A DNA stretch of 12,827 nt from a virus. The translations under genes were made by a program, and so were the position numbers. Positions within the stretch are counted from its first letter, which is position 1. Each line of letters opens with the position of its first letter. The stretch lies in UHGV virus genome UHGV-0112014; one strand, 5' to 3'. Under the pieces are notes generated by a model, which searched no databases, was not told the origin of the DNA, and saw nothing but the letters and a program-made list of their open reading frames with translations. Below are positions 2 through 12,797 of this stretch, piece after piece.

Positions 2-1660
2 ATGAATAAGATTAGTTTTTCGGTAGGGCAGGCAGCTGGCGTTGCTGTAATGGCGGTAAATGCTGACGCTACCCTCACCAATACCAGCGGTGGCGCATCT
101 GTCTTTGCTGGGCTTGTAATATCGCGTCGTGGCGCACCGGGTAAAGTGCTGAAAGTTGACGATACGACTTATCAAAGCGTATTAGGTTCACCTATTCACC
201 CTCACCTGGGATCGGCATTTGAACCATACCGCCACGTGGAGCGTGCCGTAAAAGGTGGCTCTGGTTATGTCGTTCGTGTTTGCGCTAAAGACATGAAGGT
301 GCCGGGAATTTCTGTTTCCGTCGCGAGCAGAGCAAAAGCGGCAAAGGCCAACAAAACACTTACCGTGGAACCTGCTGAAACCACAGTAAATCCAGGTGAC
401 ACATTGAGCGTGGGTGTTGCTTCAACTGCAACGACACAATCAGTAACTTTCACACCAAAAGAAACTCCCCAGATTAAAGACGAAGGGAAGGCATTATTCT
501 TCATCAAAGATGGTGATGCATCTCAAAATCGCACGTTATCACTAACTCGCGATGATGAAGAAAGTGAACTCTTTACGCTGACGCTGAAAGAAAAACAAAC
601 CGATGGGTCTGTTGAGGTGCTGGAAAGCCACCAGGTGTCCTTCAATCCAGAAGGCACTAACGACATGGGCCAACCAGCATGGATTCCGACACTGCTTGAA
701 AGCCAGTCCACTCGCATTGGTGCCGTCCTGGCAGATAATGCGGAAGCATCTGCTGCTCAACTCATGTTTGAGGATGTGGCTTTTGAAGGCGGCACTGATG
801 GCGATTTGTCCACCATTGACACCGAAGACTATCTGGAAGCATTAAAGGTTCTCGAAGCCTCGGAGGTTAATTACACCGCATTACTGTCACTGGGCTGCTA
901 TGACGCATCCGCCTTAGCCGCGCTCAAAAATCTGGCAGAAGACGTTCGTGTAGACATGTTCTACGACCTGAAGGGCAACCAGACACCAGAAAATGCCATT
1001 TCAGAAGCTAAAAGCCATAGTTTTGGTGGCTCACACCAGCCAAGCCGCTACTACTTCCCATTCTCCTGCCGAGATACCTTCACCGGTATGAATGTTGTTT
1101 ACGGCATCAGTTGCGATGCATTCGTAGCAAAAGCAAGAGGGGTGGCTCTGGTATCGGATGTTGGCGGCTGGCATTACGCTCCGGCAGGTATATCACGCGC
1201 GATTATTGATCGACAGAATATTGCCCGAATTCCAAATATCGGTGCGGTTGATCGCGAAGCATTCGTTGTCGCACGCATTAACCCAGTTTCTGTTGCTGCT
1301 GATGGTTCTGTCTACATCGACGACTCTTTAACAACTTTCAGTAAAAACAACTACCTGCGATTCCAGCATGTTTCGTCTCTGATGAATGCTATTGCCCGTA
1401 ATTTCTATGAAGTAGCACTGGCGATTAAACATGAACCGGATGGCATTACCCAGGCGACGCTGATGAAAGCAATGACTGAATTGCTTGACCGTTACGTTGC
1501 ATCCGGTGCGCTGGTTACTCCCCGTGACAAGTCTCAGGGCGAAGATCCATATGTTGTCCAGGTTGTCCAGAAAGACATCGATCTGTGGGAAGTGTCCTGG
1601 TCTGTTTGCCCGACCGGTACAGCTCGCCGAATCGTCGGTAAACCAATTCTGATGCGCTGA
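2..1660 (+). CDS. Contractile tail sheath protein (552 aa) with a central Ig-like/Thr-rich insertion
   Basis: Intact ORF from ATG at nt 2 to TGA at 1658-1660. Because the ATG is at nt 2, a start upstream of the window cannot be excluded. The C-terminal half carries recalled sheath-family motifs (GGWHYAPAG, then ARINPVSVAADGSVYIDDSLTT, resembling the APAG and N.iR...vwGarT blocks). Residues about 100-230 (KTLTVEPAETTVNPGDTLSVGVASTATTQSVTFTPKET...) look like an inserted beta-rich domain. Confidence 0.85.
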   Translation: MNKISFSVGQAAGVAVMAVNADATLTNTSGGASVFAGLVISRRGAPGKVLKVDDTTYQSVLGSPIHPHLGSAFEPYRHVERAVKGGSGYVVRVCAKDMKVPGISVSVASRAKAAKANKTLTVEPAETTVNPGDTLSVGVASTATTQSVTFTPKETPQIKDEGKALFFIKDGDASQNRTLSLTRDDEESELFTLTLKEKQTDGSVEVLESHQVSFNPEGTNDMGQPAWIPTLLESQSTRIGAVLADNAEASAAQLMFEDVAFEGGTDGDLSTIDTEDYLEALKVLEASEVNYTALLSLGCYDASALAALKNLAEDVRVDMFYDLKGNQTPENAISEAKSHSFGGSHQPSRYYFPFSCRDTFTGMNVVYGISCDAFVAKARGVALVSDVGGWHYAPAGISRAIIDRQNIARIPNIGAVDREAFVVARINPVSVAADGSVYIDDSLTTFSKNNYLRFQHVSSLMNAIARNFYEVALAIKHEPDGITQATLMKAMTELLDRYVASGALVTPRDKSQGEDPYVVQVVQKDIDLWEVSWSVCPTGTARRIVGKPILMR

Positions 1661-1687: not shown

Positions 1688-1701
1688 AGAGAGGTTTGAA
1701 A

Positions 1702-2427
1702 ATGAAAAATTATACTGCTGATCCTTTTATGCGTGCGATTTTTGGTTCTGGCTGCTTTGAAAGCGGTGATAAATCTACGCCGGGAAATGATGATAAAGCC
1801 ATGCTGGAAAGCGCCGAACAGAAAACTCAAACAAAGCCAAAAGAAGATATTGAAACCGCGATGATGGAAGCGGTTGAGTCTCGCGCACAAGGAGATATGC
1901 GCAGCCTGGCGGCTTCCATGCTTGCAGGCTGGATTGAAGATGGCGATCCAGAAGCTGACTCATTTGATGCGTTAGCAATCACTATGGCTGGCCTGGCTGA
2001 TATCGATGAAGACACCGATTTTACCGATGAACAAGTCGATGCTTATAACGATGCTCTTGCAGCCCTTGCAGATGCTGCTGTTGCGCTTGGCGCAGACCAG
2101 GACGACGTGACCGAGATGATCGACGATGAAGATGACTCTGCTGCCGAACGTGTATATGACGCGCTTTCCGAAAGCGACGCCGACATGATGGAAGCGGCTA
2201 TTGCCATTTACACCGTTGCTGGTGGTGACAGCGCAATGCTGGAAGCGGTACGTAAAAAAGTGGTCCGTGATGGCAAGGTTACCATTATCCGTAAGCGCCC
2301 GCGCCCTCGCCGCATGACATCATTGCAAAAACAGGCGCTGAAAAAAGCACGCCGCAAAGCGCATACATCCGTAGCAAATATCAACCGCAAAAAATCAATG
2401 CGCATTCGCAAAAAACGCGGTTTGTAA
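1702..2427 (+). CDS. Hypothetical protein with a strongly acidic Asp/Glu/Ala-rich N-terminal body (about 200 aa) and a strongly basic Arg/Lys-rich C-terminal tail (about 45 aa)
   Basis: ORF track gives 1696 (TTG); the ATG at 1702 is preferred because GAGAGG at 1688-1693 sits 8 nt upstream. TAA stop at 2425-2427. Composition is read from the translation (...DIDEDTDFTDEQVDAYNDALAALADAA... then RKRPRPRRMTSLQKQALKKARRKAHTSVANINRKKSMRIRKKRGL). No family recognised. Confidence 0.75.
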   Translation: MKNYTADPFMRAIFGSGCFESGDKSTPGNDDKAMLESAEQKTQTKPKEDIETAMMEAVESRAQGDMRSLAASMLAGWIEDGDPEADSFDALAITMAGLADIDEDTDFTDEQVDAYNDALAALADAAVALGADQDDVTEMIDDEDDSAAERVYDALSESDADMMEAAIAIYTVAGGDSAMLEAVRKKVVRDGKVTIIRKRPRPRRMTSLQKQALKKARRKAHTSVANINRKKSMRIRKKRGL

Positions 2428-4985: not shown

Positions 4986-5230
4986 TGAGGGCATTTTTTA
5001 CATCATCAATCCATCTGTAATGATGGCATTATTTACACATTCCAATGTAATCAATAAGTTAATCTAACAAACGATTAAGGAAAAAAGCAATAAGAATGCC
5101 AGACACACACGATATAGATTGAGGGTAATTTTTACATAACCTTTACCTATCAATATGTTACATAAAAACATAAACTGCAAACGACAAGATACATGCGATT
5201 TAGATGTAAAAATTGCCCTCAATTGCCCTT
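4986..5230. repeat. Iteron-like repeats downstream of rep (incC-like): direct copies at 4986-5004 and 5120-5137, inverted copy at 5205-5222 plus a partial at 5223-5230
   Basis: TGAGGGCATTTTTTACATC, TGAGGGTAATTTTTACAT and the reverse complement ATGTAAAAATTGCCCTCAA share the TGAGGG(C/T)AA core of the upstream iterons. 5113-5137 and 5197-5222 form a head-to-head pair flanking an AT-rich spacer. Confidence 0.55.
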
Positions 5231-5561
5231 AAGACTGTTGATAGGTAAATTTTATCCTGGCAACTTTGCCGCCTTCCGTCACTTCTGAGAAGACTATTTT
5301 CATTTTTGTATTTTTTTCAATCTCTGCTACAGCCTTCGTTAAAAAACTTCTCTTAAATTCAGCATACCGCTGGTAGCTTTTTGGCAGCCCGTAACGCTCC
5401 CGCATCCATTCAACGCCAAGTATAGCGAAGCCGCTCCCATCATCCTTTCTATACTGGCATAAGGACTCATAAAGCCGCATAGAATAAGGGTTTGTCAGGC
5501 GAGACACTTCAGTAAAATTCAGCCTCGTGAACCTCTTATCAAGCAGAGTAAAAAACGGCAT
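5229..5561 (-). pseudogene. repE: C-terminal fragment of the repE-like initiator (WH2/iteron-binding region) downstream of the amber codon
   Basis: Sub-feature of the pseudogene above. In frame with the N-terminal fragment, with no convincing independent SD before the ATG at 5559-5561. Confidence 0.55.
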
Positions 5562-5585
5562 GAGATATGGATTCAGATGAATAAT

Positions 5586-5984
5586 CTAAGTCCCCCGGCG
5601 TGGTGAGTAAGCCTCCTTAATCATCCAGGGATAAGACTCATAACTGTCTTCTGATTCGGTTGATTCATCAGGGTTATATATCGTGACTTTCTTCTCACTA
5701 AGTCCGGAGATAGCTTTACGAATATCCTTGCTGGCTTCAGCAGAGGGCAAATTATACATCTCTGCATATTCGTTGACCGTCAACTCACAGGCTCCTGAAC
5801 CAAGAACGCCATCCTTAGAAGCATAGCGAAGTCTTCCCACCACAATAAACAACAGTCGCTTTTGGTCGCGTGTCAGATGATAAGCCGCCTCTGTGATCTC
5901 ATTAGCCTGCGCCAAGCTACGGCTAATTGGTGTCGCTGATTCAATCAGACTGACGGCTTTTGCCGTTAATTCCGCTCTGTTCAT
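5586..5984 (-). CDS. repE: N-terminal fragment of the repE-like initiator (132 aa, WH1/dimerisation region), terminated by the amber codon
   Basis: Sub-feature of the pseudogene above. It has its own start and plausible SD, so a truncated product could be made. Confidence 0.6.
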   Translation of the reverse strand: MNRAELTAKAVSLIESATPISRSLAQANEITEAAYHLTRDQKRLLFIVVGRLRYASKDGVLGSGACELTVNEYAEMYNLPSAEASKDIRKAISGLSEKKVTIYNPDESTESEDSYESYPWMIKEAYSPRRGT

Positions 5985-6008
5985 AACCCTGTGTGATCCT
6001 TCAAATGG

Positions 6009-6130
6009 TGAGGGCAATTTTTACATCCCTTTGAGGGCAATTACTACACCTTTTGAGGGCAAATCTTACACCTACTGAGGGCAAATCTTACACCTTAATA
6101 GCTTAATTGAGGGCAAATCTTACACCTTGC
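6009..6130. repeat. Origin iteron array: five direct repeats of about 22 bp (consensus TGAGGGCAAATCTTACACCT) immediately upstream of rep
   Basis: TGAGGGCAA cores at 6009, 6032, 6054, 6076 and 6108, giving spacings of 23, 22, 22 and 32 bp (about two helical turns). The last three copies are near-identical. The core resembles recalled F ori2/incC iterons (...AATTGCCCTCA in the other orientation). Confidence 0.8.
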
Positions 6131-6230: not shown

Positions 6231-6247
6231 GTGAATAGCGTCACTTA

Positions 6248-6268
6248 AGGTGTAAAAATCACCCTCAA
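6248..6268. repeat. Single inverted iteron copy (AGGTGTAAAAATCACCCTCAA) on the far side of the DnaA box
   Basis: Reverse complement TTGAGGGTGATTTTTACACCT matches the iteron consensus apart from a C-to-T change within the conserved core and a few mismatches in the body. Confidence 0.5.
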
Positions 6269-6373
6269 TAGTTGCTGTTCGATCGACGAAATCATCACTC
6301 AATCCCCCCCTCCGAAATCACACACTCCCTATCCTCTGGAAAATGAACAGACACCTGCTTATCGGAGGAATAC

Positions 6374-7195
6374 TTGAACATTCCAAAATTCCCATTGCCT
6401 TCCCGTCCTGAGACAGAAATTCAGTTCCACGCCCCAACCGTGAAGGATGCGCTGAAATATTCTGACCTGAACCCGGCAGAAGATGAGGCAACTACTACAG
6501 AGTACCTTAACTCTATGCAGGATGGTGAAATTAACGACAGTGCTTACTGGACAGTCCAGGATCGCAGAACTGCCCTTTGGTGGATATTTGTTAACTCGCG
6601 CCCCGATGCAGTAATGACCTACTCCTATGAGTGCAGTCACTGCGGTAATACGCATCATGCAGATATAAACCTGAGCGATCTGGCTCAAACAGTAGAGATA
6701 CTCACTGTACCGCCTTACATAAAAACCAACGTACCGGTAAACGGCGTACCAACCAACTGGATACTTAAACCATTAACCGGAAAAGGCGCTGAACTCCTTG
6801 AGCGTATGCGGGCATCACTTCCTGATATGAAAAGCCCAGAATACAGTGCGGGCGTGGCACGTATGCGAATTGCAGAACTCGCTTTATGTACCGCGCTTGA
6901 AGACGATCCAGAAGACTTCACGCAAGCCGCCAATCGTCGCTTTGACATCATTGAAAGCATGGCGCTCGAAACGGAATTTACTCCGCTTGTTGCTCGCATA
7001 CAGCTTATGCAAAAAGACCTACGCCACGGCCTGAAAATGTCTATTGAGAGAGGCAAAAGCCGCCTGATCCTGCCTCCGCAACGCTGCAAAAACGCTAAGG
7101 AGGGTGCAGACGTGACTACCACGCTGTACGCCCCATTTCTCAATAGAGAGTTTATCCCATCAATTAGATCTGAATGGATGGCTAACCATTATTAA
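6374..7195 (+). CDS. Hypothetical protein (273 aa) opening the second + strand tail/baseplate block; contains a CSHCGNTHH Cys/His motif
   Basis: TTG start at 6374 with GGAGG at 6364-6368 (5-nt spacer); TAA stop at 7193-7195. No family recognised. A tail-assembly or baseplate role is inferred from position only. Confidence 0.55.
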   Translation: MNIPKFPLPSRPETEIQFHAPTVKDALKYSDLNPAEDEATTTEYLNSMQDGEINDSAYWTVQDRRTALWWIFVNSRPDAVMTYSYECSHCGNTHHADINLSDLAQTVEILTVPPYIKTNVPVNGVPTNWILKPLTGKGAELLERMRASLPDMKSPEYSAGVARMRIAELALCTALEDDPEDFTQAANRRFDIIESMALETEFTPLVARIQLMQKDLRHGLKMSIERGKSRLILPPQRCKNAKEGADVTTTLYAPFLNREFIPSIRSEWMANHY

Positions 7196-7249: not shown

Positions 7250-10200
7250 ATGGCGAGCACTCCATATGTCAAAAGCCCTGGAAGAAAAATACAAAGCTCA
7301 AGCCGGGAAACGTTGATCGCCGCTGGCAAAAGAGAGGTTATTTTGAAAGAGAATAAAGACCGCATCGCAATAATTGACGCTATTCAGGGGGCGAGCGCAC
7401 ACGAACTTAAGGCTCTTGCTGAGATAAAAGACGCGATTCTTTCTGGTGGGGTCGCCATAACTCAACAGGGAGGACAACAAGGTAAAGTTAGCAACAGGCT
7501 ATCCCGTAGGCGTAAAGACTACGGGCAAAACGCACCTGAAGTCGTCAGAGACGCTCAAGCTAATCCATATAAAAAACGCCTTCCGGCGAAAAAGGAGAGG
7601 GCGCTAATAAACCAGGACATAGATCGCTCTATCGTTGCAACTAACACACCAGAAAGTGTTCATTCTGTGCGATCACGCCAGACCATCAAAAGGTCGAAAG
7701 GTTCTATACCGGTAGCAGCTAATTCTACCTCTCTGCAACCACAATCCCCCCAAAGCCCAAAAGGCCAACTGCGGGATAGTAACGGGCGCTTTGTATCCCA
7801 GAAAAATAATGAGGATATAGCCAGAAAAAAAGAATGGCAGAACGCACGTAAGGCCGACGCAAAACTACAAGAAGGCTTTCTCCGGAAGCTGGGTTCTGTT
7901 ATGGGGATGGATGGAAATCAGTCCACCAGTGAAGAGTCTTTAACAAATGCCGCAGGTGTTGGGGCTGGTGGTCCGCTATGGATGGCGGCGCGTGGCATGT
8001 ATGACATTGCAAAAGAGATCACAGGGAAAGCAAAATCACTTAAGGAGTGGGTAGATAATTCACCAGACACCAAAGCAAAATCGCCAGCGATCACTTACCC
8101 GGCTGTAGCCAATGCTCAAAAAACAACCTCCGCAACAGCATTTAATAATGCTGTTGAGACAAAATCCGCACAAGCAGTAGAAGAGCAAACAAAAATTCTT
8201 CAGACCAATGACAACAAAATAATTGATGGTCTGGAAAATGTCTCCGACGAAGTAGCTAAGCTACGTAAATCAGTATCTTCTGGGAATAAGTTCGGCTTGA
8301 GTGATCTCTGGAGAAATCGAGCAAGCAGAAGAAATAAAATCAATATTGGCGATCAGGCTGGTAAAAATAAACGGAGCAAACCGAAAAGGAAAGGTCGCAA
8401 TCTTGGGGGAAAAGCCCTTTCCGTTGGCGAAAAAGTCGCTGCCGGAACCGCTGCTGTTGGCGCTGGTGCCGGAGCTGCAAAGACTGTTAAAACAAAGGTT
8501 AGTAAAGCCAAAGACATCAGCACCACAAGCGACGTATCTAAGGGTATTGCTAAAGAAACAAAAAACACAGCAAAGGCAGTTAAGCCAGCAGGTGTTGTTG
8601 CCGAAGAGGCCACAATTAAAACAGGTGAGACTGTTTCAAAGAAAAAAACCGAATCTGTAGCCCTCAAAAGTGCTGCAAAAATAGGCGTTAAATCAGCTGC
8701 ATCTACAGCGGCAAGAGCTATCCCTATTATCGGGTCGTTGGCAATGGCTGGATATGACGCTATAGACGGTTACACAGATACAGATGCGCAAAAAGCGGCC
8801 TTTGGCTTAAGTGATGATGATATTGTATCCACACAGCAAAAAACCGCTTATGCAACAGCTAATGTGCTTGATATGGGCGGCTTAGTGTCGGGTGCAACCA
8901 ACCTAATAGGTAAAGGAATCTCTGCGTTAGGCTTCGAAAGGGCAGGTGAGAAACTTCAGAATTTTGATACCGAAGATATTGCTCGTGGTGTTAATGGTGC
9001 TGTAGATATCACTAAATCTGCTTTTGGTAGCCTCAAGGATACATTTTTATCCTCTGACGAGAGCACGAAGCAGGTAAAAAAAGCAGTTGAAGATGGCACA
9101 AAAAAGACTGTCGATGCGATTCATTCTTTAGGTGAGCAGCTACAAGGCGGGCGTGATGGTGAAGATGGTGTTGGTGAGCACGGGTATACTTCCCCGGCTG
9201 AATTTAATGCGCCTGCCAGCAATACCATTGCAGCGGATCTGAATATTGGCGGGAGCAACGCTAAAAACCGTAATTACCGGAATAATAATCTCGGCAACCT
9301 TGTTTTCGCTAATCAGGAAGGGGCGACACTGGAAGCGCCAAATGCAAAAGGTGAACAGCGTTTTGCTCGATTCAACACGCCTGAAGAAGGGATCAGGGCG
9401 CTGGCAAACCAGGTGTCAAGTTATTATAACGGCACCAGTGCCGCTGCTGGGTATCAGAAGTTACAGACGGTATCCAGTATTATTTCCAAATGGGCACCCC
9501 CAAAGGAGAACAATACTAATCAATATATCGATAACGTCAGCAAATATCTTGGTGTCTCGCCTAATGAAAAAATAGACGTCAGCAACCCGGAGGTTATGAC
9601 GCAATTAGTTCGTGCTATTGCGACGAAAGAAGGCGGAAACCCTGCGGTTAATAATGAGTTTATTAAGAATGCTCTTGGGGCGTTCAATGCAAATACCGGT
9701 CGTTGGGAGGGGCGCTTCTCCGATGAAACATTGGCGCGGCTTAATAAAATTCAGAAAGAGAATGGCGGTCAGCTAATTGCTCGTGATTCGCAATATAGCG
9801 TTGGTCGCAAGGTGAGATATGCTGATGGTACATCTCCGGCACAACCTGTATTGAATGCAGTCCCAACAGCAACACCTAAGCCAATTGAGGTTGCACAACA
9901 TGCCCAGGCAGCAAAAAAGCCACAAAAAACAGGTAACCGACCACAACCGATTATTCCAGAGAACGCTGATGTTAATACTGACTCGCCATCGAGTTTGCTT
10001 GAGCGGTTAATCGCCATAAATGAAAGCGGTATCAGTGGAGTAAGTGATTTATTTGGCGGCGCGGCTACCAGTCTTGCTGGAACAAGTCTGGACTTGGTGA
10101 AGGATTTTGCGTCGGATACTTCATTTGGTTCTATATCTTCGCTTTCAGAAAAGGCGAAGGGAATGGATCAGGCTCTGACTGAAAAAATATCCGGCTTAAC

Positions 10201-10990
10201 CGGAAAATCTTTTGGATTCAAAAAAGCACCACAGGTAGCTGATATCAGGGAGGCTATACAAAAAAGGCCGACACCTGAACGCGATATGTCTTCGGTCGAT
10301 CTTCTCTCTGACGCTTCACAGCCAACAGAGAATAAAAAAACACCTGTAAACTCAAAAGGGATTCCGGTCTATGACAATGGCAATAAGGTAATAGACGGCG
10401 AAGATAAGGGATTTCTTGGTTCTTTGTTTGATTCGTCATTAACAGGCATAAAGCGCATTGGTTCGGCTGTATTACCTGCAATTGGTGATAACGTTTCACA
10501 GCTTGTTGGTGGCATCGATGGCACTGGCATATTAAATGATTTTGTCTATCAGGCTACAGGGCAGAATTCAACAATCGCCAGGGCGATTAGCCCACTTACA
10601 AAAAGTGCTGGTGGTTGGCTAAATAATGGCATTCAACAAACTGCCGATAGCATCAAAGGAATATCAACTGAGGCAAATAACGCCATATTTGGCACTGCGT
10701 CAGCCGTGCAGGAACCTTTTCTTGCTATGCCGCCACAGCTTCCCACTGTAACCGATCTTGCTCGAAGCGGAATAAGACAACCATTAACTACTGACACTGC
10801 AAATAACGATCCTGCTATGTTGAAGGCGCTGGATAACGTCTGTTCTATCCTGAAAGACCTTCTGAATGTGAACAAAAATAACACAAAAGGCGATCCAGAT
10901 AAGGTTGTCAAAACATCGCAGCCGCAGCCGCGACCACGTGCGAGTACAACTATTAATGACCCGTCGCTGGATGCGCTGCTGGAGGATTAA
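7250..10990 (+). CDS. Tail tape-measure-like protein (1246 aa) with an embedded conserved globular domain (about aa 678-800)
   Basis: Long ORF directly upstream of gp25-like and J-like baseplate genes. It has a basic low-complexity N-terminus, Ala/Gly/Lys-rich central segments with hydrophobic stretches (AIPIIGSLAMAGYDAIDG), and a compact domain (NNLGNLVFANQEG...FARFNTPEEGIRALANQ...KWAPPKENNTNQYIDNV...ATKEGG). No SD precedes the ATG at 7250, so the exact start is uncertain. Confidence 0.65.
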   Translation: MASTPYVKSPGRKIQSSSRETLIAAGKREVILKENKDRIAIIDAIQGASAHELKALAEIKDAILSGGVAITQQGGQQGKVSNRLSRRRKDYGQNAPEVVRDAQANPYKKRLPAKKERALINQDIDRSIVATNTPESVHSVRSRQTIKRSKGSIPVAANSTSLQPQSPQSPKGQLRDSNGRFVSQKNNEDIARKKEWQNARKADAKLQEGFLRKLGSVMGMDGNQSTSEESLTNAAGVGAGGPLWMAARGMYDIAKEITGKAKSLKEWVDNSPDTKAKSPAITYPAVANAQKTTSATAFNNAVETKSAQAVEEQTKILQTNDNKIIDGLENVSDEVAKLRKSVSSGNKFGLSDLWRNRASRRNKINIGDQAGKNKRSKPKRKGRNLGGKALSVGEKVAAGTAAVGAGAGAAKTVKTKVSKAKDISTTSDVSKGIAKETKNTAKAVKPAGVVAEEATIKTGETVSKKKTESVALKSAAKIGVKSAASTAARAIPIIGSLAMAGYDAIDGYTDTDAQKAAFGLSDDDIVSTQQKTAYATANVLDMGGLVSGATNLIGKGISALGFERAGEKLQNFDTEDIARGVNGAVDITKSAFGSLKDTFLSSDESTKQVKKAVEDGTKKTVDAIHSLGEQLQGGRDGEDGVGEHGYTSPAEFNAPASNTIAADLNIGGSNAKNRNYRNNNLGNLVFANQEGATLEAPNAKGEQRFARFNTPEEGIRALANQVSSYYNGTSAAAGYQKLQTVSSIISKWAPPKENNTNQYIDNVSKYLGVSPNEKIDVSNPEVMTQLVRAIATKEGGNPAVNNEFIKNALGAFNANTGRWEGRFSDETLARLNKIQKENGGQLIARDSQYSVGRKVRYADGTSPAQPVLNAVPTATPKPIEVAQHAQAAKKPQKTGNRPQPIIPENADVNTDSPSSLLERLIAINESGISGVSDLFGGAATSLAGTSLDLVKDFASDTSFGSISSLSEKAKGMDQALTEKISGLTGKSFGFKKAPQVADIREAIQKRPTPERDMSSVDLLSDASQPTENKKTPVNSKGIPVYDNGNKVIDGEDKGFLGSLFDSSLTGIKRIGSAVLPAIGDNVSQLVGGIDGTGILNDFVYQATGQNSTIARAISPLTKSAGGWLNNGIQQTADSIKGISTEANNAIFGTASAVQEPFLAMPPQLPTVTDLARSGIRQPLTTDTANNDPAMLKALDNVCSILKDLLNVNKNNTKGDPDKVVKTSQPQPRPRASTTINDPSLDALLED

Positions 10991-10995
10991 TACTG

Positions 10996-11370
10996 ATGCT
11001 TTACGAAATAGACGCAAGACTTCAAACGAACGAAAGCGGTGTCATTATTGCAGAGGGAAATACAGCAGCCTGGATGGCTCGCCTTGACGAGTGGTTACGA
11101 ACCCCGGAAGGAAGCGTTTATGGGTTACCGTCCTGGGGAAATCCAATGGAAGAATTTAAGCATGAACCATTCGGCTCTGAAACTTCGCACATAGTCGAAG
11201 TGGCTATTGAAGGGAGAATGATGACAAAACTACGACAAGATCTACCTGGTTTAGATGTGCAGGGAATTCGCTGTACATCCATTTCTGAAGATTCTTTATT
11301 AATTAGTTTTTATGCGAAAGGTGGAAGCATGGATATTGTTATGCAGAAATCAAGCGGGGTGGGCGCGTGA
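10996..11370 (+). CDS. Baseplate wedge protein, gp25/gpW (GPW_gp25) family (124 aa)
   Basis: ATG at 10996 with GGAGGA at 10981-10986. Size and motif pattern (LDEWLRTPEGSVYGLPSWGNPMEEFKHEPFG...LLISFYAKG) fit the recalled gp25/gpW signature (L.T..GeR...P.fG...l.i.i.Y). Confidence 0.7.
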   Translation: MLYEIDARLQTNESGVIIAEGNTAAWMARLDEWLRTPEGSVYGLPSWGNPMEEFKHEPFGSETSHIVEVAIEGRMMTKLRQDLPGLDVQGIRCTSISEDSLLISFYAKGGSMDIVMQKSSGVGA

Positions 11371-12797
11371 CCATTACAGAATTACTGGACAAATTTAACG
11401 CCAAGCTAAATGAAAATACATGGTGGTCACGATTTGTAAACAGTCAGTTTGTGCAGATGCACGCTGTGTTCGGAGCACAGCTTATTTATATTGCTCGTAC
11501 ATTTGCAAGTCGTGGTCTTACTGAGGGGCTTATTTCAACAGCTACGCGCCGGTCAAGTATTTTGGCGGTTGCTGAAGACCGTGGCTACGTGGGACGATTT
11601 GTTAGTGCTTCATACGGAACAACGTCGATAACCAATAAAACTGATCGGGATATTACGTTACCAGCCGGGGCAGAATTGCTTGCTAGCGACCAAACTCCTT
11701 TAGCAATTATTAACAGTGTGGTTGTTCCTGCTGGGAAAACTGTTTCTGGTGTAGAAGTCAAACAGCACGAAGCCGTAAGCGTTACATTTGATATTGAAAA
11801 GGAAACGCTATTCCTGACGTTGTTGCTTTCCAGAGAATTAACAAAAGAAGTCTCTAGCCTTGATGTTTATGTTATTACAAATGGTGTAGAAAAAAAATGG
11901 GTCTACAACCCATTATTTCGAATGTCCAGAGACAAAAGTAAGCACTATTCATTGGCATATAAGCCAACTGAACAACTTGGCGTTAAATTTGGTGACGGCT
12001 CTATGGGTATGATGCCGCCAGCAGGTTGTCAGGTTAGAATTGATGTTATGGCTAGCCTTGGCGACTATACTTTGGCTGAAGGACAAAAGTTAGAACCAGC
12101 TGGAAATATTGCCCAATACATAGAGTCTTTGGAGTTTAAAACCGATTCGATCATTACTGGCGGCGGTGGCATGGAAACAACAGAAGAAACCCGAAATCGC
12201 GCACAGTATTATGTTGCATATGATGAACAAGTCGTATGGGGCGGTGATTACCGTCAATTCATCCAGAACGTGGTACACGGTACGTCATGGCTGAACGTTT
12301 GGGGTGAAGCGTTACAAGAAAAAATAACAGGATTTGATGTGCGTAACATCAATAAGATTTTCTTTTGTGGACATAAGCCGGGCGTAAGCCAGGAGCAACT
12401 TAAGTCAGAAATACTTAAAGCCCTGGAGAATGTTCCAAATGAACTGAACAAGCGGTTCGAGTATGTAGATACAAATGAACAGCCTTTTACGATAAATTTT
12501 ACTGGTATTGCACGTAAAAGTGTTCTGATAGACGATGCTAAAAATGCCATTAAAGCCGCGTTGGAAGATAATTTTGGGCGTGATTCGTCCTCGTTCAGTT
12601 TATTGCTACAGAGTGATGATGATTCCCAGCAATGCTATGCGCAGGTAAAAGTCAAAGATATTTGGCGCGTAATAGAATCGTTGGATATGTTTCTCTCTTA
12701 TGACATAAAAATACAAAATATGAAGGATGCTGTTTACTTTAATGACTTTATTTATCTTGACGTAAAATCTTCTACTTTCAGCATTTCTTATCCGTAA
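11367..12797 (+). CDS. Baseplate J-like protein (gpJ/gp6 family, 476 aa)
   Basis: GTG start at 11367 overlaps the upstream TGA (GTGA, 4-bp overlap). The W-then-J order is as in P2-type baseplate modules. N-terminal region (ILAVAEDRGYVGRFVSASYG...ITLPAGAELLASDQTPLAIINSVVVPAGKTV) resembles the recalled Baseplate_J pattern. Confidence 0.65.
   Translation: MTITELLDKFNAKLNENTWWSRFVNSQFVQMHAVFGAQLIYIARTFASRGLTEGLISTATRRSSILAVAEDRGYVGRFVSASYGTTSITNKTDRDITLPAGAELLASDQTPLAIINSVVVPAGKTVSGVEVKQHEAVSVTFDIEKETLFLTLLLSRELTKEVSSLDVYVITNGVEKKWVYNPLFRMSRDKSKHYSLAYKPTEQLGVKFGDGSMGMMPPAGCQVRIDVMASLGDYTLAEGQKLEPAGNIAQYIESLEFKTDSIITGGGGMETTEETRNRAQYYVAYDEQVVWGGDYRQFIQNVVHGTSWLNVWGEALQEKITGFDVRNINKIFFCGHKPGVSQEQLKSEILKALENVPNELNKRFEYVDTNEQPFTINFTGIARKSVLIDDAKNAIKAALEDNFGRDSSSFSLLLQSDDDSQQCYAQVKVKDIWRVIESLDMFLSYDIKIQNMKDAVYFNDFIYLDVKSSTFSISYP

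Follow-up and report, generated by a model that had tools for sequence, protein, structure and literature searches.

A predicted Enc34-type peptidoglycan glycosidase domain within the Sit-like tape-measure protein of a D6-like E. coli prophage

The Sit protein of phage P1 ("structural injection transglycosylase") has been detected in virions by LC-MS/MS and is judged to be the tail tape measure, a role that was inferred from its length and predicted helicity (Gonzales et al. 2022, PMC9024508). Its residues ~750-900 form an SLT domain, regarded as the source of the muralytic activity that is missing from the P1 gp5 needle (PMC9024508). Two neighboring genes have also been assigned functions in P1, with pmgB proposed to encode a tape-measure chaperone and pmgA a T4 gp25-like baseplate wedge (PMC9024508). 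Other tape measures cited as muralytic are Pb2 of phage T5 and Tmp of mycobacteriophage TM4 (PMC9024508).

A second group of muralytic enzymes, the Enc34-type family, corresponds to PHA02564 of the NCBI CDD (Cernooka et al. 2022, PMC8943055). The structure of its Enc34 member (PDB 7Q47) shows an all-helical, lysozyme-like alpha-lobe related to GH73/GH23, in which the helix bearing Glu131 is circularly permuted relative to the GH73/GH23 enzymes (PMC8943055). The catalytic role of Glu131 was inferred from superposition, not mutagenesis; the conserved residues of the active site further include Trp79 and Tyr95 (PMC8943055). The isolated Enc34 domain (ORF39ΔC) lyses outer-membrane-permeabilised E. 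coli, P. aeruginosa and H. alvei (PMC8943055). Likewise, M4LysΔTMD is muralytic on outer-membrane-permeabilised Gram-negative cells, and M4Lys, the enzyme of Salmonella phage BSPM4, yields glucosaminidase-type and possibly endopeptidase-type products (PMC7143992). Both the Enc34 ORF39 endolysin and M4Lys are free-standing endolysins of lysis cassettes and end in a two-helix membrane domain. Already known are the domain family together with its structure and activity, the existence of muralytic tape measures, and an annotated D6 gene of which the one described here is a close variant. D6 genome paper (Gilcrease & Casjens 2018) aside, we did not find in the literature an explicit description of a D6-type Sit in which an Enc34-type fold replaces the SLT domain of P1.

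The window analyzed here, a single DNA stretch of 12.8 kb, is the tail-and-baseplate module of an E. coli plasmid prophage that is D6-like and belongs to the P1 family. Every one of its genes has its counterpart, in the same order, in the annotated genome of phage D6, and the features of the window are collected in Table 1. Within it, positions 9263-9739 most probably encode an Enc34-type peptidoglycan glycosidase domain, situated in the C-terminal half of a Sit-like tape measure. An Rfam scan of the window returned no matches. Two overlapping ORFs, at 9246-9575 (+) and 9769-10017 (-), were rejected as spurious because the pattern of synonymous and non-synonymous substitutions relative to D6 fits coding in the Sit frame alone.

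Table 1. Features of the window, in positional order; aa numbers refer to the 1246-aa Sit-like protein
Feature	Position	Strand	Remarks
Sheath gene	2-1660		First in ORF order
gp21-like baseplate protein	1696-2427		
pmgG, bplB, pmgC, tub			In ORF order between the gp21-like gene and the rep gene
RepB-family rep gene	5229-6017	-	
pmgB homologue	6374..7195	+	Directly upstream of the sit-like ORF; synteny with D6 gp086
Sit-like tail tape-measure gene, 1246 aa	7250..10990	+	Homologue of D6 gp087 and P1 sit
Conserved Sit core, aa 459-614	8624..9091	+	Part closest to P1/P7/SJ46 Sit
Predicted Enc34-type (PHA02564) peptidoglycan hydrolase domain, aa 672-830	9263..9739	+	From predicted fold and family similarity
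Family signature RNNNLGN, aa 677-683	9278..9298	+	Family consensus RNNNPGN
W748	9491..9493	+	Equivalent of Enc34 Trp79; substrate-positioning aromatic at the end of helix 3
Y759	9524..9526	+	Equivalent of Enc34 Tyr95
E794	9629..9631	+	Equivalent of Enc34 Glu131, in helix 5; putative catalytic Glu
Sit-clade extension, aa ~815-830	9692..9739	+	GRWEGRF hairpin and short helix; no counterpart in Enc34-type endolysins
pmgA homologue	10996..11370	+	Synteny with D6 gp088
bplA	11367-12797		Last in ORF order

The 1246-aa ORF shares 86.7% nucleotide identity with D6 gp087 over 100% of the gene, and the latter is annotated as a "tail injection transglycosylase, similar to P1 gene sit". The protein matches phrog_7182 at 2266 bits. 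In BLASTP comparisons with P1 Sit, aa 41-613 of the window protein were aligned at 28% identity (E=1e-37) and the last ~90 residues matched weakly, while aa ~614-1150, a region that includes the enzymatic domain, could not be aligned. The most strongly retained part is the Sit core, which shows 41-47% identity to Sit proteins of the P1 family (tblastn) and contains the matches to phrog_2533, phrog_24683 and phrog_21630. The gene order pmgB-sit-pmgA-bplA is kept between the window and the D6 and P1 annotations, such that the protein has both the homology outside the enzymatic domain and the position between pmgB and pmgA-bplA that characterize a P1 Sit-type tape measure. The gene is present in 109 plasmid records, the closest being NZ_AP027688.1 at 96.6%. 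The preliminary description of this DNA had placed the domain within a low-complexity, tape-measure-like protein, and the homology to P1 Sit bears this out: judged by its sequence, the protein surrounding the domain is low in complexity, tape-measure-like and homologous to P1 Sit.

It is very unlikely that this protein is an internal, ejected "pilot" protein resembling T7 gp16, with the domain forming part of a trans-envelope ejectosome. The same domain does head a gp16-like ejectosome protein of Kayfunavirus, and some P1 records label sit as "protein inside capsid D" or "internal (core) protein". Proteomics and length arguments in P1 nonetheless make Sit the tape measure (PMC9024508), the gene is flanked by a putative tape-measure chaperone gene (pmgB) and by baseplate genes, and P1-family phages are contractile myophages whose tube lumen requires a tape measure.

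Having a Sit-type tape measure as the carrier, the domain itself was delimited at aa ~672-830, with approximate boundaries. The amino-acid string quoted in the preliminary description is the exact translation of 9281-9760 in the frame of ORF 7250-10990, and that interval covers the same domain, although it begins about 6 codons late and runs about 7 codons too long. An AF2 model of aa 666-830, built from an alignment of 40 diverse relatives, had a mean pLDDT of 90.4 and a pTM of 0.87 and consisted of six helices followed by a short C-terminal hairpin, compact and free of disorder. This agrees with the compact globular module that had been postulated. Structure prediction and Foldseek comparison had also been suggested at that stage, and they gave a confident fold with a match probability of 1.00 rather than a disordered or coiled segment.

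A phmmer search of PDB sequences matched the domain to 7Q47, the catalytic domain of the Hafnia phage Enc34 endolysin (E=3.3e-18), and to 9VVP, a 1295-aa protein named "Gp29" (E=8e-15). A profile of 40 relatives matched 7Q47 at E=3.1e-38 and 9VVP likewise at ~1e-38, and phrog_873, annotated "endolysin", was matched at E=2e-40. Foldseek, queried with the predicted structure, concurred with the PDB sequence search at a probability of 1.00. Enc34-like and BSPM4-like endolysins share 36-39% identity with the domain (tblastn). An exhaustive search of representative protein clusters found 6855 that match the family at E<=1e-3 and 1233 at E<=1e-10, numbers that are far beyond chance; a word-indexed protein search gave just 16 matches, mostly fragments. 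On these similarities, the domain is clearly placed as a member of the PHA02564/Enc34-endolysin catalytic-domain family.

Scanning the whole protein, and the domain on its own, against Pfam-A and NCBIfam yielded no usable match, and neither collection models the Enc34-type family. Two sub-threshold candidates, DHQ_synthase (16.8 bits; cut-off 24.2) and ChrR anti-sigma (13 bits; cut-off 124.5), were dismissed as chance. Of the domain searches, the Pfam scan suggested earlier gave no match, and those of PDB and phrog gave significant sequence matches. In the preliminary description, signatures of lytic transglycosylases, M23 peptidases and lysozymes could not be matched to the segment, because Pfam and NCBIfam lack a model and because the helix with the catalytic Glu is circularly permuted relative to SLT and GH73 enzymes. 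Its suggestion of a cell-wall-active domain is probably right, given the family membership. Two further points need correction: the module is not "uncharacterised", as its family has a crystal structure (7Q47) and homologues with demonstrated muralytic activity (PMC8943055, PMC7143992), nor does it stand apart from lysozymes, the Enc34 family having a lysozyme-like alpha-lobe fold related to GH73/GH23.

In order to compare individual residues, equivalences were taken from the alignment to 7Q47, for which the numbering offset was verified, and conservation was counted in an alignment of the query and 165 relatives (166 rows), with totals given as the number of sequences covering a column. In the family signature, R677, N678, N679, N680 and N683 are conserved in 91-96% of the 166 rows, or 94-99% of the column-covering sequences. 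Position 681 is P, F or L across the family; the window protein has Leu, and Sit-clade members typically have F or L there instead of the motif Pro. The signature also includes F705, G714, Y725, A749-P750, E753-N754-x-T756, Y759 and E794. The column of E794 is invariant (160/160), as it is in the 40-relative modelling alignment. At W748 the column holds W, Y or F in 154 of 159 sequences, and at Y759 it holds Y in 152 of 159. A second acidic residue, E753, is nearly invariant (E or D in 156/158). The domain thus combines similarity to the Enc34 domain with a Glu in helix 5 and with equivalents of Trp79 and Tyr95, and all of the proposed active-site residues are kept as a putative catalytic triad-like signature, E794/Y759/W748.

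When the window is compared with D6, no part of the 1246-aa protein is better conserved than the domain. Its residues are identical to D6 at 157 of 159 positions (98.7% at the protein level), and the codon differences comprise 28 synonymous and 2 non-synonymous changes. Several flanks (e.g. aa 1-100, 831-900 and 1001-1100) have only 66-83% identity to D6, with ratios roughly 1:1 or worse; aa 615-671, directly N-terminal of the domain, are 98% identical as well. The substitution pattern indicates that the domain is under purifying selection and hence real selective constraint. A structural or binding role would give purifying selection too, and tape measures do include structural segments, which bears on the idea that the module is a catalytically inert peptidoglycan-binding or structural element, such as a baseplate-hub plug or anchor. 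We regard this as extremely unlikely, since the residues kept across thousands of relatives, bona fide endolysins included, are exactly those of the proposed active site, and E794 (160/160), Y759, W748 and the RNNNxGN motif should have been lost from an inert derivative.

A putatively muralytic Enc34-type domain in this position invites comparison with P1 Sit. The two proteins are orthologous by synteny and by the homology of their N-terminal ~600 residues and extreme C-terminus, and each has its muralytic domain, predicted in the case of the window protein, about two-thirds of the way along. They differ in the domain used: P1 Sit has SLT (GH23), matched by Pfam PF01464 at residues 748-867 with 91.6 bits, whereas the window protein and D6 gp087 have an Enc34-type domain at 672-830 and no SLT. 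The PF01464 profile matched neither of the latter two, and no Pfam match was obtained for them or for 7 further long proteins that bear the domain, most of them Sit-like. The Enc34-type domain sits about where P1 Sit has SLT and presumably does the same job. The shared scaffold with differing modules in the P1 and D6 lineages therefore suggests alternative muralytic cassettes on a common tape measure. The arrangement of a Sit core followed by an Enc34-type domain was found in 32 retrieved proteins, of which about 27 are full-length, and each protein represents one 50%-identity cluster.

The two modules show no detectable similarity in sequence, and an alignment of the domain profile to the P1 SLT with hhalign was non-significant (probability 0.8%, 22 columns over the Glu helix). 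The aligned stretch sets "AIATKEGGNP" over the SLT catalytic motif "AIAATESGGNP", which fits the published permutation; being non-significant, it is not evidence.

The bond that the domain would cleave can be narrowed by analogy. With Enc34 and M4Lys as guides, an N-acetylglucosaminidase-type hydrolase is most likely and is our best guess. A single-Glu mechanism would fit a lytic transglycosylase too, and it could be argued that the domain, on its permuted scaffold, works as a true lytic transglycosylase, cleaving MurNAc-GlcNAc non-hydrolytically to leave 1,6-anhydroMurNAc, as would the SLT of P1 Sit. There is one invariant acidic candidate, E794, in a helix-end motif resembling that of P1 Sit; the GH23 enzymes phiKZ gp144 and MltC are among the remote structural relatives of Enc34 (PMC8943055); and the domain replaces SLT at about the same position. 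We nevertheless consider this reading unlikely. Pfam SLT is not matched and the hhalign comparison to the P1 SLT is as poor as stated above, GH73 glucosaminidases appear to be the nearest remote relatives with a solved structure (8yxk; PMC8943055), the muropeptides obtained with M4Lys pointed to hydrolytic, glucosaminidase-type products (PMC7143992), and E753 could serve a hydrolase mechanism. The "transglycosylase" label in databases appears to have been passed on from P1 by synteny, without sequence support.

Carried by the tape measure, the domain is likely to digest peptidoglycan locally during tail penetration. The tape measure would lie within the tail tube, and upon contraction of the sheath and passage of the tube across the outer membrane it would be expelled into the periplasm, a step inferred from other phages. 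There the domain may bind glycan strands in a groove that W748 and Y759 line, and E794 would serve as general acid when the glycosidic bond is cleaved. The resulting local hole in the murein could then admit the tube and the DNA conduit to the inner membrane. By analogy with T7 gp16, T5 Pb2 and TM4 Tmp, the effect would be greatest on highly cross-linked murein. SLT mutants of T7 gp16 have been reported to show a conditional defect, of the kind seen on stationary-phase or low-temperature cells. The earlier proposal that the module is delivered with the tail at infection is in keeping with this scheme and is judged right, its carrier being a Sit-type tape measure and the expulsion step inferred. 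The window domain shares its PHA02564 catalytic domain with the Enc34 endolysin and M4Lys, but it would act at entry rather than at lysis, lies inside a virion tape measure of 1246 aa rather than being free-standing, and has a clade-specific C-terminal hairpin and a Leu for the motif Pro. Like T5 Pb2 and motif 3 of TM4 Tmp, it would be a peptidoglycan-degrading module inside a tape measure that aids penetration; those two belong to siphovirus tails, however, and to other enzyme families, with Rpf/LT-like motifs in TM4 Tmp motif 3 and a peptidase-type module in T5 Pb2.

The same choice between modules seems to recur outside the P1 family. T7 gp16 carries an N-terminal SLT, and by tblastn the Gp29 of PDB 9VVP was identified as a Kayfunavirus gp16-like protein, for which structure no describing paper was found. 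In Kayfunavirus (K1F-like) Gp29, as in the window protein, an Enc34-type domain forms part of a large protein that is delivered to the cell envelope at infection. Gp29 differs in being a podovirus ejectosome protein rather than a tape measure, in having the domain at its extreme N-terminus and in sharing only about 35% identity with the window domain. T7 gp16 and Kayfunavirus Gp29 seem to present the same SLT-or-Enc34-type alternative as P1 and D6. The domain also occurs in virion or structural proteins of epsilon15/phiV10-like, D3112/MP29-like, Aeromonas and Burkholderia phages, and in virion proteins of the membrane-containing phages PM2 and NO16.

One could speculate that the alternation seen in the tape measures of P1 and D6 and in the gp16 proteins of T7 and K1F is an adaptive switch of bond chemistry and not neutral shuffling, which we hold to be quite unlikely. 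Such a switch could lead from a lytic transglycosylase to a hydrolytic glucosaminidase, possibly a bifunctional glycosidase/endopeptidase. If true, it could bypass host murein modifications or periplasmic inhibitors of lysozymes and lytic transglycosylases (Ivy/MliC-type), and the muralytic cassette would be a determinant of host range or physiological state.

For annotation, the result bears on >100 D6-like phage-plasmids of E. coli, Salmonella and Shigella in which the gene is labelled "transglycosylase" or "hypothetical protein". The module would be better annotated as an Enc34-type, lysozyme-like glycosidase, a type absent from the Pfam and NCBIfam models. This is a modest annotation correction and an ordinary finding that alters no concept. 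It offers a clear example of homologous scaffolds bearing different muralytic cassettes, paralleling T7 and K1F gp16, and adds a virion-associated, putatively Gram-negative-active lysin domain to the candidates for enzybiotic engineering.

The C-terminal extension of the Sit clade was visible in the AF2 model as strands at model residues 146-148 and 153-155. Columns 817-820 are filled in only about 40-64 of the 166 sequences, among which W819 is conserved.

The muralytic domain of the Sit-like tape-measure protein, a predicted peptidoglycan hydrolase module of the Enc34 type, is lengthened at its C-terminal side by residues ~815-830 (GRWEGRFSDETLAR), which are modelled as a hairpin followed by a short helix and include a conserved Trp. 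This extension is confined to the Sit-type tape-measure clade and is lacking in Enc34-type endolysins. It could serve as a linker, as a docking element or as an additional substrate contact.

The best-conserved segment of the protein relative to Sit of P1, P7 and SJ46 (41-47% identity) is residues 459-614, which are rich in glycine and alanine, hydrophobic in part, and include AARAIPIIGSLAMAGYDAIDGY and GLVSGATNLIGKGISALGF. Conservation of this segment extends to three PHROG families of unknown function; within the tape measure, the segment may serve to insert into a membrane or to provide an anchor at the tube or hub. The region diverging most from D6, the reference phage with the same gene order, comprises the first ~100 residues, with 66% identity and indels. 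From the annotated start the D6 product is 1260 aa long, versus 1246 aa from the putative start used here.

The orthologue of the gene at 7250-10990 in P1 (2358-5780 of L002, the P1 sequence carrying sit) is named differently between public records, where sit orthologues appear as "transglycosylase", "lytic tail fiber protein", "protein inside capsid D", "internal (core) protein" or "hypothetical protein". The "transglycosylase" label on D6-type genes appears to have been transferred from P1, despite the absence of the lytic transglycosylase (SLT) domain.

Features of the Sit-like protein gene and the rep region
Feature	Window position	Strand	Remarks
Sit-like residues 1 to ~100	7250-7550
Sit-like residues 459-614	8624-9091
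Sit-like residues ~815-830	9692-9739
RepB-family plasmid replication initiator gene	5229-6017	-	homologue of D6 gp085, 251 aa
In-frame TAG	5586-5588		Tyr codon in D6
Five tandem ~21-nt iterons	6008-6127		TTGAGGGCAAATCTTACACCT; spacing about 22 nt; directly upstream of rep
Copies related to the rep iterons	5199-5223, 6245-6269		one on each side of rep

The iteron array and the rep gene together look like a typical iteron-type plasmid origin, lying amid the genes of the tail cluster. Comparison with D6 revealed an in-frame TAG that divides rep into two ORFs of 143 and 110 aa. Apart from this codon, the protein differs from D6 gp085 at only two residues. The TAG could be an amber mutation or the mark of recent pseudogene formation, or it could stem from an error in sequencing. 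Among complete E. coli plasmids the nearest is NZ_AP027688.1, in which the rep region is 98.7% identical to the window and rep is annotated as intact.
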